Source: Escherichia coli | Lineage (GTDB): Bacteria > Pseudomonadota > Gammaproteobacteria > Enterobacterales > Enterobacteriaceae | Strand: one strand, 5' to 3' | DNA: 64,000 bases | Assembly: GCF_030013595.1 (NCBI RefSeq) | Contig: NZ_CP122769.1 | Part shown: piece by piece, positions 58,101 through 64,000 of the stretch | Numbering within the stretch: position 1 is the stretch's first letter | Layout: each line of letters begins with the position of its first letter | Made by a program: the position numbers

Positions 58101-61100
58101 TTGCATTTGGGAATATCTTCGAATGCTTCGGGTTTTCTGTTGTAGTAGCGGTTGTATATTGGATTGCGTATAACAAAGCAGCTGAGTCAGGAATAAGAGG
58201 ATTGCTAAAACACAGACTCTGGTGGCTCGGTTTTTTGCCAGGTAAAGCAGTTTTTAGTAGCCGTTATTTCAACGATCCATTTATCAGAGATTTGTATTCT
58301 TGATGGAGCTATGAATGAAAATGCTAAGTGGCATTAACATCCCTTTTTTCAAAAAATCTAAAAAGGATGAAAACGGTGATCTTGAACAGTCATACGTAAA
58401 GAAAGATGAAAGTGCTAAGGGACGTTTTTTGGACATTAAAAAACGATTTAGCCCACAAGCTGAAGCGTCAGGTGCTGGAATTACATACAGCGCCCTGATT
58501 AATCGTGATACAAAACTTATCCGCATTAATACTGTTTCAATAGCCGTCATTGGGTTATTGGTTGCAAAGATTCTTTTTTTCACTGACCCAGTGACGATTG
58601 TTACCCCTCCAAACATGAATGAAGAGATCACGGTTGTTGGTAACAAAGCATCGGAATCTTATAAAACACAATGGGCTCTCTTTTTTAGTACCCTTTTAGG
58701 GAATATTAATCCAACTAATATTTCCTTTGTGACGGCCTATGTCCTCGATGCCCTTTCACCTGAACTACAGGCTAAAACGAGTGAGTCTTTACAGGAGCAG
58801 ATAAATATCATGCAGGCTCGTGGTGTTGAGCAGACCTTTAAGCCTAATGATATTTACTTTGATCCAAAAAATGACATGGTCTATGTCTGGGGTACCAAAA
58901 CGACTCGACTTGTAAATGTTCCGGACAAAACTGAATCATCGAAATGGACTTATGAATGGGTTCTCGGGATGAAAAATGGTCGCCCAAGAATTGCATATGT
59001 AAATCAATATTCCGGAACACCGAATATTAAAAAAATTACGATAAACGGCAAAGAGCAACTGGCAACGCTGGATAATCCGCCACCGTCTACAGGTAACAAG
59101 TGATGATTAAAAAAAGGGCTTAGGGTTCAACGCAATTACCGCATTGATCATGCTCACGACTTCGAACTGCGTAATCGCTGAAGAATACCAATTGCCAGCA
59201 ACAATTAATAACCCGGTTGTAATGCCAGTTGGTGCTGACGGATTTCAGAATGGAGCTGCAAAAGCCATTATTCCGGGTCAAGCTGGTTCTGAACAGTCAG
59301 GTGCACAAACAAACCTTAGTGAAGCCGGTAATGCGCAGGGACAAAAACCTACAACTGATCTCCCTACCGTGCAACTTTCCCCAGCCAGCAATGCTTCGCC
59401 TGCGGTAAGCGCTATTACTGGAGCATTATCAAATAATCCTAGTCTCCCCGGATTTGACGCACAGACCCGCTCTGGTGCAATTGATAGCTATGGGAGACCA
59501 ACAGGTACCTCTTCCCAGCAGAATGCAACCAATGCGACCGCCACGTCAAAAGCCGATGAACTTTATGTCGAAGCTCGTAACCGATATAAAGAAGTTCAGC
59601 GTGTAAATGTGCCGCCTGGTGGGAATGTGGTACTGCCAGTTTCACGAGGACTTCAAAACAGAATATCGACCAGCTTCAAGAATGCTTCTGTCAGCACTTC
59701 TACCCCTGCTGAAGAGGCAAGCATATTTGTTAATGGTGGCGATGTCTTTATTTCAACTAATACCGATAAACCAATCGGGATTATGTTGTCGGAAGATCAG
59801 GTACCTGAATCGACCTATAACCTGACCCTGGTACCGCTTGATGTTCCCGGTGCGATGATTTCAGTTACTACATCTTTAAGCCCATCTATGCAAGCCAAAC
59901 GTGAAACCTCATTGGATAAGCAAAACTATGAGGAAATGTTGGCCCGCTCCCAGTCAGAAGAACTGGCTCCATCGGATCCAAAACAAGACGATCATAAACA
60001 AAGAATCATTGATTTATTGACTCCTGTGGCTCTTGGTGAGGTCCCTTCAGGATTCAGTTTACAACAGGACCGACTTTCTCGTATTCCTGCGTCAGAGCAG
60101 TCCCCATGTAACTTTAATATGTATGCAAAGCTCGGTCAGAGACTGGTTGGCTCACGTGAACTTATTGATGTAATTCTTGTGAAAAACGATAAACCATACG
60201 GTCAAATCGTTGCTGATCAGCAGTGTATGGCAGAAGGCGTTATTGCAAGTGCTTTATTTGATAAAGCATACCTGCAACCGGGAGAAGAAACAGAGCTTTA
60301 CATAGTCCGGGATAAATTGTTCAAGGAACGCGAGGCCCGGGTTACAACCAGACCAAGTCTAATCAGAAAATAATATGGGAAAAGTTACTTTGCCTGCTCT
60401 GCTTGGGGCCACCGTGATTGGTTTTGTCGTATTTGCTTTAACCAGCTTTTACTACAGGTCAGAATATATACCAAAAAGGAGTGTATTAATCGTTCCGGAC
60501 GCACCCATTAGTATCGAAGATGGCAGTAACGCTTTTCCCGTTCAGACAGTAATAATGAACGATCCAACTCTTATTGATAAATTTGTAGGAGAGGACAATA
60601 TTAATGAGGAGAATGCTTTTGACTATCACAAAAGTAACGTTTTGGAACCTAATTACAAACATGAAATATCTAGAACGAGCCAGATAGATAAAGCTGAAAT
60701 GAATCATCCATCTGTTCGTGAAAACTGGGCCAGAGCAGGTGATCCCTATATCGTTCCTCAGATGTCTGACAGCGAACGAAATCTAAAAATTAAACGATTC
60801 CAGAAACCTACAAGTGGAGCTAATCATGGACATTAAAAAGGCCTGGGAAAATAAGACCGTCAGACTTTCTGTTATTGGCGCTCTGCTGGTAGTGATTGTT
60901 TATATTATTAGCCAGTCTATTTTTTCCACACCAGTTAAGAAAGAAAAGAAAACACAGAAAAAAGACATGCAGACCAATTTGTTGTTAGATGATTCGCAAA
61001 TGAACAAATTGAGTAATGAAGAAAGCCAGAAAGTATATAAGGAAATGGTTAAGCAAAACCGACTTGATCAAAATGCGGCGAAAGAGGACCGCGAAAAAGC

Positions 61101-64000
61101 AGAAAAAGCCCAACAGGAAACTAAAGCCCAAGTTGCAAGTTTAACTTCTCAACTTCAGCAACTGTCTCAGCAAATTAATGATATGCAGACTAATCGAAAC
61201 GGCAATCGTAACTTGGATGCTGGTAGTTCGCGTAAAACGATTAATGAGCAGGCACCGGCAGCTCCTTATCAGCTTAATGCTAATGCGCCGATTAATGGCG
61301 TAAACCCTAATTACGCGTCTATCACACCTACGCGTAATAGCCCGATGAGAACAATCACACAAAGTTCCATTAAGACTAATGGTACCGATGGTGTCATTCA
61401 GGTTATGCCCGTGTCTGAAAACAGAATCAAGGAAGGCAGAGAGGTCATTGCAGGAGATAAAGCGCCTACTCGGACTGTACGAGGTGATGGTACTGCGCCA
61501 GTTGATAGCAAAGCGCGGCATGCTGCCCGAAAAGATGAAATGTTTCTTCCGGCAACATCTATTATCACTGGTGTTCTGATTACCGGGCTTGAAGCGCCTA
61601 CAAGCCTTTCTTCCAAATCAGAACCAATGCCAGTAACAATGCGTATTAAAAAAGATGTCATCATGCCCAATAATTTCACCATGGATTTGCGTGACTGTAA
61701 CCTTCTGGGTTCAGCTGTTGGTGATTTGGCGTCACAGCGTGCTTACATACGTGCCACTTCTATCTCTTGTGTTAATTCAAAAGGGAAAGCTTTTGACGTA
61801 AAACTGGAAGCATATGCTGTAAGTGAAAATGACGGAAAAAATGGGATCCGAGGCACGCTTATCAGCCGAAATGGTAACGCAATTGCAGGAGCTGCATTTG
61901 CCGGTGGACTTTCTTCACTTGCCGGTAGCTTAAGCCCCAGTAAGGTATCTTCACTTAACATCGACCCTAATTCACAGGCTCAGTATCAGTCCCCTAATTT
62001 TGGTGCACTTGGGGCATTAGCCGGGGCTGGTGCAGCTCAAGGTGGCCTTAATCGACTCGTCGATTACTACACCGCAATTGCAGAACAACAGTGGCCAATC
62101 GTAGAAATTAGCCCTGGCCGAGCTATTACATTTGTCGTTCAGACCGGAACTACAATTCCAACGAATCTGACCAGTCGCTGAGGTTTAAATGGATAGTTTA
62201 GAAAAAAAAGAATCGACTGAATCAGCTGGACCTGAAATCACTAAAAAAATGGTGCGAGAAAGGACAACAAAAAAAATTACCTTCGAAATTGATATTGAAA
62301 AAATATTGAAGTATTTATTTTTCTTCGCCTTTGCCGTTTTGGTCATTATTTATGGTTATAAAGGCTTTATGAATGTTTACGATTACTTCAATAAACAATC
62401 ACAGCCTTCGTACAAGATTGCAGTGCTTGACATGCCTGAATTACGTAAGGAATTTTTCAAGCATCACGGAGGCCGTACTGCTGACAATGATAGAACTCAA
62501 TTCGAAGAATATTTCAGAACATTAATGAAGATCTACCGTGACCGTGGCTATTTAATTATTGATGCAACGCTTGCCGTTACTGTACCGGATAGTGTTGAAA
62601 TCGTCACTTATATGGAACTTGAAGATAGCTCTGAAGCGGTACAATCAAGTTCTTATAATGCAAAGAAGTAGAGGGCACCCAATAGTGAAAAAGTTACTTT
62701 TCCCTTTAATGGCGGCTTTCGCCATTATGGCGAATACGGTCACTTATGCTTCAGAGCAGGTCCTAACTAATAGTGATGCTGCTGCGTTAATGGCAAAGGC
62801 AAAGGAAGGCGGCGTTTCACCCAGTCAGATCTCGGGTGCGTTATCAAAAATGAAAGGATATAAACCTAAGGATGCCATATACATTCCTTCTGGTGGGCTA
62901 TACCTCTTTCAGGACGAGCGTTCGCAGCTAATGGCAGTAACGACCGATGGCCGATACTCCCTTACTGGGGGAAGCCTTGTTGATGTAATTAAACGTAAAC
63001 CTGTTCTGACTGTAGAAGAAATCAGAAATTCCTATTTTATTAGTCTTGATGAGGCCCCCTTCCCTCTGGAAACTGTAGCGTCCATTCATCTGGGAAATTC
63101 AAAGCTTAAGAGACAAGCAGCCATTTTCTTAACACTTGATTGTGACGGTTGCATGGAACTTGTTAAGAAATTTTATGCAGATCGGGACAAGTATCGGATA
63201 GATATTGTTTTAGTTCCCTCACCCGGTGAGCCAAAAGAAGAGCTTAGAAGGCTCTGGTGTAGTAAAGAAAAAGGAAAAATAAACAACCTCGATATTCTTC
63301 GTTGGCTAATGGGAAGCAAATCCGACATTGAAAAAAGATTGCTCTCTCAAAAAGAAGCAGAAGAATGTCCGGCGGAACCTTTGGTAGCGTCATTGATGCT
63401 CGCAGGAATTTATAAATTGCAGGGTGTACCTTCAGTTGTCAGACAGGATGGTTTGGCTGGTAATGGCATTCCAAAAGATTTCGACTACTGGTTGAACCAA
63501 AGCGTTGAACCTCTCTTAAAAAATCCATTTGAGACAAATTAAGGCTAGTTTATGAACATCAAAAGATTGGTACTCAGTGCTCTGGTTGTAGGTACATCCT
63601 CATATCTTACGGGGTGCTCCATCGGGAGTTCCGAATCCGAATGTCCAGGCATTGAAAAGGGCGTTATCTGTAAAGGTCCTCGCGAAGTTATGGAGTTAAC
63701 TAATAATCGAGATGATCTGTCTGCACTTGCGGGGGAAGAGTCGGAATCGGGAAAGGAGAAATCGGCTGTCAATGACAGCCGTTATCCAACTGAAATTAGC
63801 CCTCCAGGGGAAGTCAAATATCCACAGTCTACAACCCTTAAAAATCAGCCTGTGGCTTATTCAAAAACCGAAATTAAGCCAGTTGGTCAGTTACCTGTCA
63901 TGTACGATAAAACTTTAAAAATGGGTGCCCCTACTTCATCCATTGGACCACGGCCTATTTCTGGTGTACCGGTTAATTCAAACGTAAGGATGACTAGCAG

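Follow-up and report, generated by a model that had tools for sequence, protein, structure and literature searches.

The DNA analyzed here, a 64,000-nt stretch of an Escherichia coli contig (NZ_CP122769.1; referred to below as the window), is backbone of an IncHI2 plasmid. Its region from 57.5 to 63.6 kb, which is 100% identical in >1,100 IncHI2 plasmids, contains the Tra2 transfer operon with trhA, traL-, traE-, and traK-family genes, htdO, trhB, an open reading frame (ORF) of 160 aa, htdT, and trhV; the first, pilin-like gene was taken as trhA, and its RefSeq label is pili assembly chaperone. Scattered over the window is a short palindrome with the core AAAGTNACTTT and the full 13-bp form aAAAGT(W)ACTTTt. 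It is present in 18 perfect copies, 13 of which are intergenic and typically located 90 to 220 nt upstream of a gene start. One pair of copies lies upstream of a gene for an orphan ParB-like DNA-binding protein (PBL1), and a one-mismatch variant lies upstream of a paralog (PBL2). In the order of the sequence, the sites are as follows:

2492..2502, copy 91 nt upstream of PBL1, proximal of a pair
2618..2628, copy 217 nt upstream of PBL1, distal of the pair
11741..11751, intergenic copy, 141 nt upstream of a small - strand gene (start 11600)
13948..13958, intergenic copy, 152 nt upstream of a - strand gene (start 13796)
16679..16689, intergenic copy, 132 nt upstream of a - strand gene (start 16547)
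21728..21738, intergenic copy, 206 nt upstream of a - strand gene (start 21522)
25940..25950, intergenic copy, 170 nt upstream of a - strand gene (start 25770)
30108..30118, copy with a central C inside an Ig-like gene, - strand
31143..31153, copy ~110 to 130 nt upstream of the start of an Ig-like gene (31034/31010, - strand)
36860..36870, copy inside the Ig-like gene 36560-38980 (+ strand); 19 nt in common with the htdO-start site
39084..39094, intergenic copy, 104 nt past the stop of the Ig-like gene 36560-38980
45869..45879, copy in the divergent promoter region between an Ig-like gene (start 45712, - strand) and a gene at 46085 (+ strand); first of a pair, 65 nt apart
45934..45944, second copy of the divergent region 45712 (-)/46085 (+)
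50896..50906, one-mismatch variant (AAAAAGGTACTTTTT in context), 80 nt upstream of PBL2
52760..52770, copy ~100 nt inside the annotated 5' end of ORF 52006-52863 (- strand); kept in IncHI1 in a 68%-identical alignment
56544..56554, intergenic copy, 111 nt past the RepB-family replication gene (55558-56433)
57329..57339, intergenic copy with a central G, ~216 to 243 nt upstream of trhA
60381..60391, copy AAAGTTACTTT in codons 3 to 6 of htdO (gene 60375-60836, + strand)
62690..62700, copy AAAGTTACTTT in codons 2 to 6 of htdT (gene 62685-63542, + strand, GTG start)

The number of copies was far above expectation. In the window, 0.14 copies of AAAGTNACTTT were expected, and none of 100 dinucleotide shuffles reached 18. 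A composite IncHI2 plasmid, made of the window and the rest of the plasmid as found in pSJ_255 (locus L006), carries ~50 copies, or about 1 per 3.6 kb of backbone. Within its 186.5-kb backbone, we counted 48 perfect copies where a third-order Markov model predicts 0.47, corresponding to an approximately 100-fold enrichment. One-mismatch copies showed a small excess (24 versus 12.6 expected), and two-mismatch copies showed none. The 71 kb of accessory DNA on the same plasmid (IS26, integron, and resistance cargo) contains no copy at all; the motif is restricted to the IncH plasmid backbone. Chance and base composition were ruled out as its origin by the shuffles together with the Markov null, and we regard it as almost certain that the motif is a functional, selected DNA element.

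To describe its form, a logo was built from 88 copies of the IncHI2 plasmid and three relatives; the ten core positions are invariant in this logo by construction, since the pattern AAAGTNACTTT was used for selection. The logo revealed a self-contained, symmetric 6-1-6 palindrome with a center that is mostly A or T, with A at -1 and T at +1 in 68% of the copies, and with farther flanks that are not conserved. The symmetric flanks and the copies found between convergent genes speak for recognition by a dimer on duplex DNA, and the motif is very probably a protein-binding site on double-stranded DNA. A Tus-like binder (the sequence GTAAC is common to the motif and to Ter sites) was dismissed on theoretical grounds alone, since Ter sites lack symmetry and replication would not survive 50 fork barriers that act in both directions. 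As a separate observation, the pSJ_255 part of the composite plasmid contains a gene for a Tus-family replication-terminus-binding protein (L006, 47899-48861) with a motif copy inside it.

The motif is shared by related plasmids. IncHI1A sequences contain 6 copies in 31 kb and 10 in another 31 kb, an IncHI1B-like plasmid contains 9 in 28 kb, and the Klebsiella/Shigella IncFIB/HI1B type contains 23 copies in 42 kb and 20 in 40 kb, with 19 of the latter 20 being intergenic. It is also enriched in Yersinia and Leclercia plasmids and in metagenomic IncH-like contigs. Copies at orthologous positions are kept within flanks of roughly 67% identity, and backbone proteins are down to 35% identical across the motif-bearing lineages. 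For instance, the copy behind the RepB-family gene (56544..56554) has positional equivalents in IncHI1 (locus L003, 16488) and in the IncHI1B-like plasmid (L004, 898), and the copy upstream of trhA (57329..57339) has equivalents with the same central G in both (L003, 17527; L004, 2114). Furthermore, the copies in the traD coding sequence and around the origin of transfer (oriT) are at the same places in IncHI1 and IncHI2.

In a Klebsiella plasmid (L130; NZ_CP034040.1), two arrays of five motif copies each were observed (1162-2419 and 18294-18749). The first is located in 2 kb of noncoding DNA that follow the RepB gene, next to four 21-nt iterons (AAAACATTAACCGTCGTACGT), and the second is located directly upstream of the PBL1 ortholog; judged by their arrangement, both look centromere-like. 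Replication iterons were rejected as the identity of the motif, the iterons of the Klebsiella-type Rep being a different 21-mer. A scan of contigs for paired sites returned 120 loci, most of them from unrelated taxa; only three enterobacterial contigs or so, L011, L042, and L124, had an IncH-like appearance. In L024, L033, and L114, which belong to unrelated bacteria (Lachnospiraceae and Acidobacteria), 6 to 9 copies of the 11-mer were found within 2 to 14 kb; these are probably repeat arrays that contain the 11-mer by chance.

An IncC plasmid with a related MOBH/MPF_F transfer system (L137; NZ_CP110913.1, positions 1-50000) contains no copy of the IncH motif in its 50 kb. The same unbiased palindrome scan, run on these 50 kb as a method control, returned TTCACATGTGAA eight times, which is the core of the published dispersed parS sites of IncC, verified by electrophoretic mobility shift assay (EMSA). 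This recovery validates the approach. Full-text literature searches on the motif and on IncHI regulation, which covered the R27 temperature-regulon paper but not the original R27 and R478 genome papers, returned no published description of this ~50-copy IncH motif, and an earlier mention is possible.

With respect to genes, the 88 copies are unevenly distributed. Their intergenic share is 52%, compared with ~18% expected, and 29 copies lie between -300 and -41 relative to the nearest start codon (18.5 expected). A modest enrichment was also detected in the first 45 nt of genes (8 copies versus 3.8 expected), and all copies in this position belong to genes of the type IV secretion system (T4SS), namely a traE-family gene, an htdO-like gene, trbC, trhU, trhH, and htdT. 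Further copies flank oriT, follow the RepB-family gene, and precede trhA. The sequence-only reading, which had noticed 3 of the 18 copies in the window, described an element that belongs to the transfer operon and sits on translation starts. This specificity did not stand: the ~50 sites are spread over the whole backbone, about half of them are intergenic, and the excess in the first 45 nt is modest.

The sequences quoted in that reading were confirmed, with ATGGGAAAAGTTACTTTGCC at 60375, GTGAAAAAGTTACTTTTCC at 62685, and AAAAGTAACTTTGCCTGCT at 36859. The htdO gene starts with ATG GGA AAA GTT ACT TTG, in which the core AAAGTTACTTT extends over codons 3 to 6 and is read as KVTL. In htdT, which starts with GTG AAA AAG TTA CTT TTC, the core extends from the third base of codon 2 to the first base of codon 6 and is read as KKLL. 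An overlap of the palindrome with the translation start is real for htdO, and it holds for htdT if GTG 62685 is the start codon. The RefSeq (PGAP) start of htdT is ATG 62790, which gives a coding sequence of 753 nt. However, the extension from GTG 62685 (TTG in IncHI1) encodes a signal peptide, M(K/R)KLL..., and since this peptide is conserved in four lineages, the GTG start is supported. The deposited htdT start is probably ~35 codons too short, given that a DsbC-like periplasmic protein needs a signal peptide.

The recurrence of the htdO context inside an Ig-like gene was also borne out, since positions 36859-36877 and 60380-60398 match at 19 of 19 positions if W is allowed at the center. 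Both sites encode KVTLPAL and share eight bases beyond the motif, a match that would hardly be expected by chance (p ~0.005, a rough estimate over all site pairs). These extra bases could be due to coincidence, micro-conversion, or a shared peptide constraint.

The proposal that the nucleotide motif rather than the peptide is under selection was upheld. The 34 intragenic copies use all three frames, with 16 in frame 0 (KVTF/KVTL), 8 in frame 1 (KS(N/Y/D)F), and 10 in frame 2 (KKLL/KSL), and the htdO and htdT sites themselves are read in two different frames. At the htdO start, the core is perfect in IncHI2 (MGKVTL), has one mismatch in IncHI1 and in the IncHI1B-like plasmid (MRKATF), and is again perfect, but shifted by one base, in the Klebsiella/Shigella type (locus L005; MTKKSNF). 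The use of all three frames, together with this shift between lineages, argues for selection at the nucleotide level. The core at the start of htdT is free of mismatches in IncHI2, IncHI1 (L003, 22890), and the IncHI1B-like plasmid (L004, 7481), in alignments that are 66 to 68% identical overall, and it has one mismatch in the Klebsiella/Shigella type. We also looked in the diverged operons for the opposite case, a peptide kept with its palindrome lost; at both starts, the palindrome was kept or had one mismatch. The suggestion that the motif imposes rare TTA and CTT codons was not borne out, since CTT is the commonest Leu codon in the Tra2 genes (29%), and TTA accounts for 17%.

These data also bear on the possibility that the motif merely reflects base composition, a peptide that recurs in signal peptides and Ig-like domains (KVTF/KKLL), or a target of methylation or restriction. 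The peptide KVT(F/L), encoded by the frame-0 sites, is a recurrent one in Ig-like proteins, and several orphan methyltransferases are encoded on the plasmid. Nevertheless, we consider such an origin practically negligible in view of the ~100-fold enrichment, the half of the sites that are noncoding, and the use of all three frames; a peptide-driven origin is ruled out by the frames and by the intergenic half of the copies. Moreover, restriction and methylation targets are short and usually avoided, rather than enriched as exact 11-mers.

A role at the RNA level had been considered in the sequence-only reading as well. The motif could be a translational operator at the htdO and htdT starts or, being self-complementary, the target of one trans-acting RNA that would pair with all copies, and the 8 copies in the first 45 nt of T4SS genes (3.8 expected) are in line with this. 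However, RNA folds around the htdO and htdT copies were no better than those of shuffled sequences (z-scores of 0.72 and -1.2), no Rfam family matched in the window between 56000 and 64000, and the two 5-nt arms are only 1 nt apart, which makes a hairpin impossible. In addition, most copies lie elsewhere, either 90 to 220 nt in front of a gene, between two convergent genes, or well inside a coding sequence, and the symmetric flanks with A at -1 and T at +1 favor a dimer on duplex DNA. An RNA-level function is very unlikely.

Three genes in the window encode ParB-like proteins that are candidates for binding the motif:

1217..2401, - strand, PBL1, orphan ParB-like DNA-binding protein of 394 aa; Pfam HTH_ParB; putative prime candidate for the binder
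49653..50816, - strand, PBL2, second ParB-like paralog of 387 aa; HTH_ParB; alternative candidate binder
54026..55081, - strand, PBL3, third ParB-like paralog of 351 aa; HTH_ParB; adjoins the RepB-family gene

Their sequences resemble chromosomal ParB, Spo0J, and Noc, and they are distant relatives rather than canonical ParB proteins. Together with an orphan ParB of IncC, PBL1 to PBL3 form one family, apart from the P1-type partition ParB of IncH and from the KorB-domain ParB of IncC. Across 73 family members, neither the GFNxR box nor the GxxR box (G99 and R102) varies, and an alignment to Noc places the PBL sequence RQG(H/A)xR on GERRxR. An AlphaFold model of PBL1 had a predicted local distance difference test (pLDDT) score of 84, with values of >94 for residues 20 to 255. 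It matched ParB-CTPγS, the RK2 KorB-KorA-DNA complex (8qa9, target template modeling [TM] score of 0.67), Noc, and Spo0J, with E values of around 1e-7, and also Caulobacter ParB; 8qa9 KorB was the best match by TM score. The model thus shows a predicted ParB-like fold, in which an N-terminal ParB domain with the GxxR box is followed by a helix-turn-helix (HTH). The likeness to KorB is at the level of the fold only: a Pfam search at E≤10 returned HTH_ParB alone for PBL1 and no KorB domain.

The promoter region of PBL1 contains the motif in all five lineages examined, with two to five copies in four of them and one in Leclercia. The sites are at -91/-217 in IncHI2, at -95/-213 in IncHI1, and at about -99/-200 in Yersinia; the single Leclercia site is at about -247, and the Klebsiella type has five sites within 600 bp. 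All PBL1 orthologs share the pattern S/T-x-x-H-hydrophobic-R in the recognition helix. From these features, and by analogy with the ParB-like systems described below, the motif appears on balance to be an operator or loading site recognized by a plasmid-encoded, dimeric ParB-family protein, most likely PBL1. That the binder is one of the ParB-like paralogs seems somewhat better than an even chance, and its assignment to PBL1 specifically is more tentative, falling short of even.

If so, a PBL1 dimer would dock on the 13-bp palindrome, and the sites in its own promoter would lead to autoregulation. Through the dispersed sites in front of leading-region, Ig-like, replication, and transfer genes, the dimer would control these genes, either directly or by sliding or spreading away from where it docked. 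PBL1 might be a nucleotide-dependent clamp that acts over a distance, and it might also, or instead, organize or position the plasmid; repression, anti-silencing against H-NS, and partition are candidate outcomes. In the densely packed T4SS operons, which lack intergenic space, sites would be placed where one gene meets the next and in the opening codons of signal peptides (KVTL, KKLL, and KSNF), where the cost to the protein would be least. The placement in htdO and htdT can be explained in this way because signal-peptide starts, which are Lys-rich or hydrophobic, are flexible in sequence.

Several observations weigh against the assignment to PBL1. The TIGR00180 (parB_part) scores of PBL1 to PBL3 are 29.5 to 33.9 bits and thus below the cutoff of 58.45, the GERR box of PBL1 is degenerate (GACR), and no ParA gene is annotated next to any of the three genes. 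No sigma-70-like promoter was predicted upstream of PBL1 beside its sites, no fixed spacing between site and promoter was found, and about half of the copies are intragenic and distant from obvious promoters. The orphan ParB of IncC has a similar recognition helix (SAEHVR), yet IncC lacks the motif, so covariation of the recognition helix, tried as a means to choose among PBL1 to PBL3, was suggestive only. Finally, every IncH backbone gene is found together with the motif, so PBL1 cannot be picked out by its phyletic distribution.

Some of these points favor a binder other than PBL1, such as PBL2 or PBL3, the P1-type ParB, HtdA, another small backbone HTH protein, or an enterobacterial host protein. 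The promoter of PBL2 carries the variant AAAAAGGTACTTTTT ~80 nt upstream of the gene, identical in IncHI2 and IncHI1 (window 50894-50908; L003 6732-6746, with the core at 6734), and a perfect copy is found at -107 of the PBL2 ortholog in the Klebsiella type; the variant may be a deliberately weaker site. Furthermore, the motif is invariant where PBL1 is only 35% identical, which fits a slowly evolving host factor or a better-conserved protein, and the case made from the PBL1 helix is weakened by the IncC orphan ParB. On the other hand, the recognition helix of PBL2 is not conserved between lineages, sites upstream of htdA were found in the Klebsiella type only, and we know of no E. coli regulator with the consensus of the motif, which counts against a host binder. 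The absence of copies from the 71 kb of accessory DNA points to backbone specificity but is compatible with a host binder. As to the P1-type ParB, the IncHI2 parAB genes have no perfect or one-mismatch site in the ~1 kb that precedes parA or in the ~0.5 kb that follows parB, and the IncHI1B-like and Klebsiella/Shigella-type loci have none in the ~1 kb before parA. The motif was ruled out as the canonical ParAB centromere, given this lack of sites near parAB in three lineages. We consider a binder other than PBL1 possible but doubtful.

A recognition site for PBL1 or a paralog would have precedents among ParB-family proteins of other plasmids. KorB of RK2 binds twelve 13-bp OB palindromes and is both a partition protein and a cytidine triphosphate (CTP)-dependent sliding clamp that mediates long-range silencing (PMC11790492). 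The IncH motif shares several features with the IncP system: both palindromes are 13 bp long with a single central base in a 6-1-6 arrangement (TTTAGC(G/C)GCTAAA for OB and AAAAGT(A/T)ACTTTT for IncH), both are present in many near-perfect backbone copies that are near promoters, 100 to 200 bp off, or distant, and both have a copy in the promoter of the binder or candidate binder. In addition, KorB combines a ParB-CTPase fold with an HTH, as does the PBL1 model. The two systems differ in the sequence and in the number of sites, with ~50 copies in IncH compared with 12. Moreover, the PBL proteins have no match to the Pfam KorB domain, their GERR box is degenerate, and IncH binding is a proposal made by analogy. 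KorB also has the partners ParA (IncC) and KorA, whereas no ParA is annotated beside the PBL genes; a KorA-like partner was not searched for.

On IncC plasmids, 14 dispersed parS inverted repeats bind a KorB-domain ParB in EMSA, one of them at the parAB053 promoter (PMC10954446). Here, too, the palindromes are scattered over the backbone of related MOBH/MPF_F plasmids, and one is at the promoter of the binder's operon. However, the IncC core is TTTCACATGTGAAA, which is not among the top IncH palindromes, and 50 kb of IncC sequence contain no copy of the IncH motif. The binder on IncC plasmids is a ParA-partnered partition ParB, while the IncH parAB genes lack a nearby site, and the candidate binder belongs to another ParB-like family. 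By this comparison, the IncH and IncC plasmid families would rely on one type of device, namely palindromes that are scattered over the plasmid and serve ParB-family proteins.

Orphan ParB-like CTP switches with palindromic loading sites and distance effects on expression are also known in VirB/virS of the Shigella plasmid pINV and in BisD/bisS of ICEclc (PMC10770331, PMC12409273). Similar to the IncH sites, bisS sites are found inside genes, and the deviant GNTR box of BisD is reminiscent of the PBL sequence G(H/A)(T/C)R. In contrast to IncH, these elements have few sites each and other site sequences. VirB and BisD activate or anti-silence genes, while an effect in IncH could have either direction. 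Tens of near-perfect palindromes of 12 to 14 bp per replicon are known for Noc (NBS), SlmA (SBS), and MatP (matS); the first of these proteins, a ParB paralog, is among the matches of the PBL1 model. The sites of all three are on chromosomes and have roles in division or positioning. By these analogies, the IncH motif is a putative dispersed ParB/KorB-type site set, which is distinct from KorB proper and from a ParABS centromere.

The IncC precedent is a set of partition sites, and this raises the question of whether the IncH sites are mainly centromere-like or architectural, serving partition, condensation, positioning, or membrane tethering of a low-copy plasmid of 250 kb. In line with such a role, the sites are numerous, near perfect, and evenly spread (about 1 per 3.6 kb of backbone), many of them are intragenic or between convergent genes, five-copy arrays exist in the Klebsiella type, and the PBL fold resembles that of Noc and ParB. 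The upstream bias (29 copies versus 18.5 expected at -300 to -41) speaks against it, as do the missing ParA partner of PBL1 and the two partition modules, ParAB and ParMR, that IncH plasmids already have. A mainly architectural function seems unlikely, although it is compatible with operators, since KorB does both.

A further-reaching version of the PBL1 proposal can be envisaged. PBL1, perhaps together with PBL2 and PBL3, would load at the ~50 sites and coat or patrol the whole 180-kb backbone as a plasmid-private chromatin layer. Such a layer would set the expression of transfer, leading-region, and maintenance genes by silencing them or by countering H-NS, and it could play a part in the thermosensitivity for which IncH conjugation is known, with sites deliberately embedded in signal-peptide codons. 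We regard this version as improbable.

IncHI1 and IncHI2 plasmids, together with their Klebsiella relatives, are major vehicles of resistance to multiple drugs, to colistin (mcr), and to carbapenems, and of multidrug resistance in typhoid. The known regulators of IncH transfer are HtdA, TrhR/TrhY, and H-NS/Hha, and the R27 regulation paper defines no DNA site for them. The conserved ~50-copy site may offer a handle on a previously unnoticed, backbone-wide system of control or organization and predicts its regulon, and three ParB-like proteins can be named as candidates for the motif AAAAGTAACTTTT. It also suggests tools based on titration or incompatibility (compare SGI1 acting against IncC), and the motif may be used as a simple sequence signature of IncH-family backbones.

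The window is colinear with plasmid CP142544 except for insertions and deletions of the size of insertion sequence (IS) elements. Two window stretches of ~2 kb, 6247-8374 and 31119-33039, are absent from CP142544; the first contains - strand ORFs of 266 and 390 aa and resembles an IS element. Conversely, insertions of IS150 and IS3 are found in CP142544 but not in the window. The Ig-like gene at 28618-31034 (- strand) is interrupted in the window, with a first ORF that ends after 585 aa and a second (28618-29343) that overlaps it. Its counterpart in CP142544 is intact (796 aa), and the broken gene is probably a frameshift or nonsense allele. The region from 8500 to 31000 (- strand) is a long, one-directional run of small hypothetical genes with a motif copy every 2 to 5 kb. 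It encodes orphan DNA methyltransferases, a PAPS-reductase-family protein, an HNH endonuclease, DUF3085, DUF957, and DUF6012 proteins, and hok, and it resembles a plasmid leading or anti-defense region.

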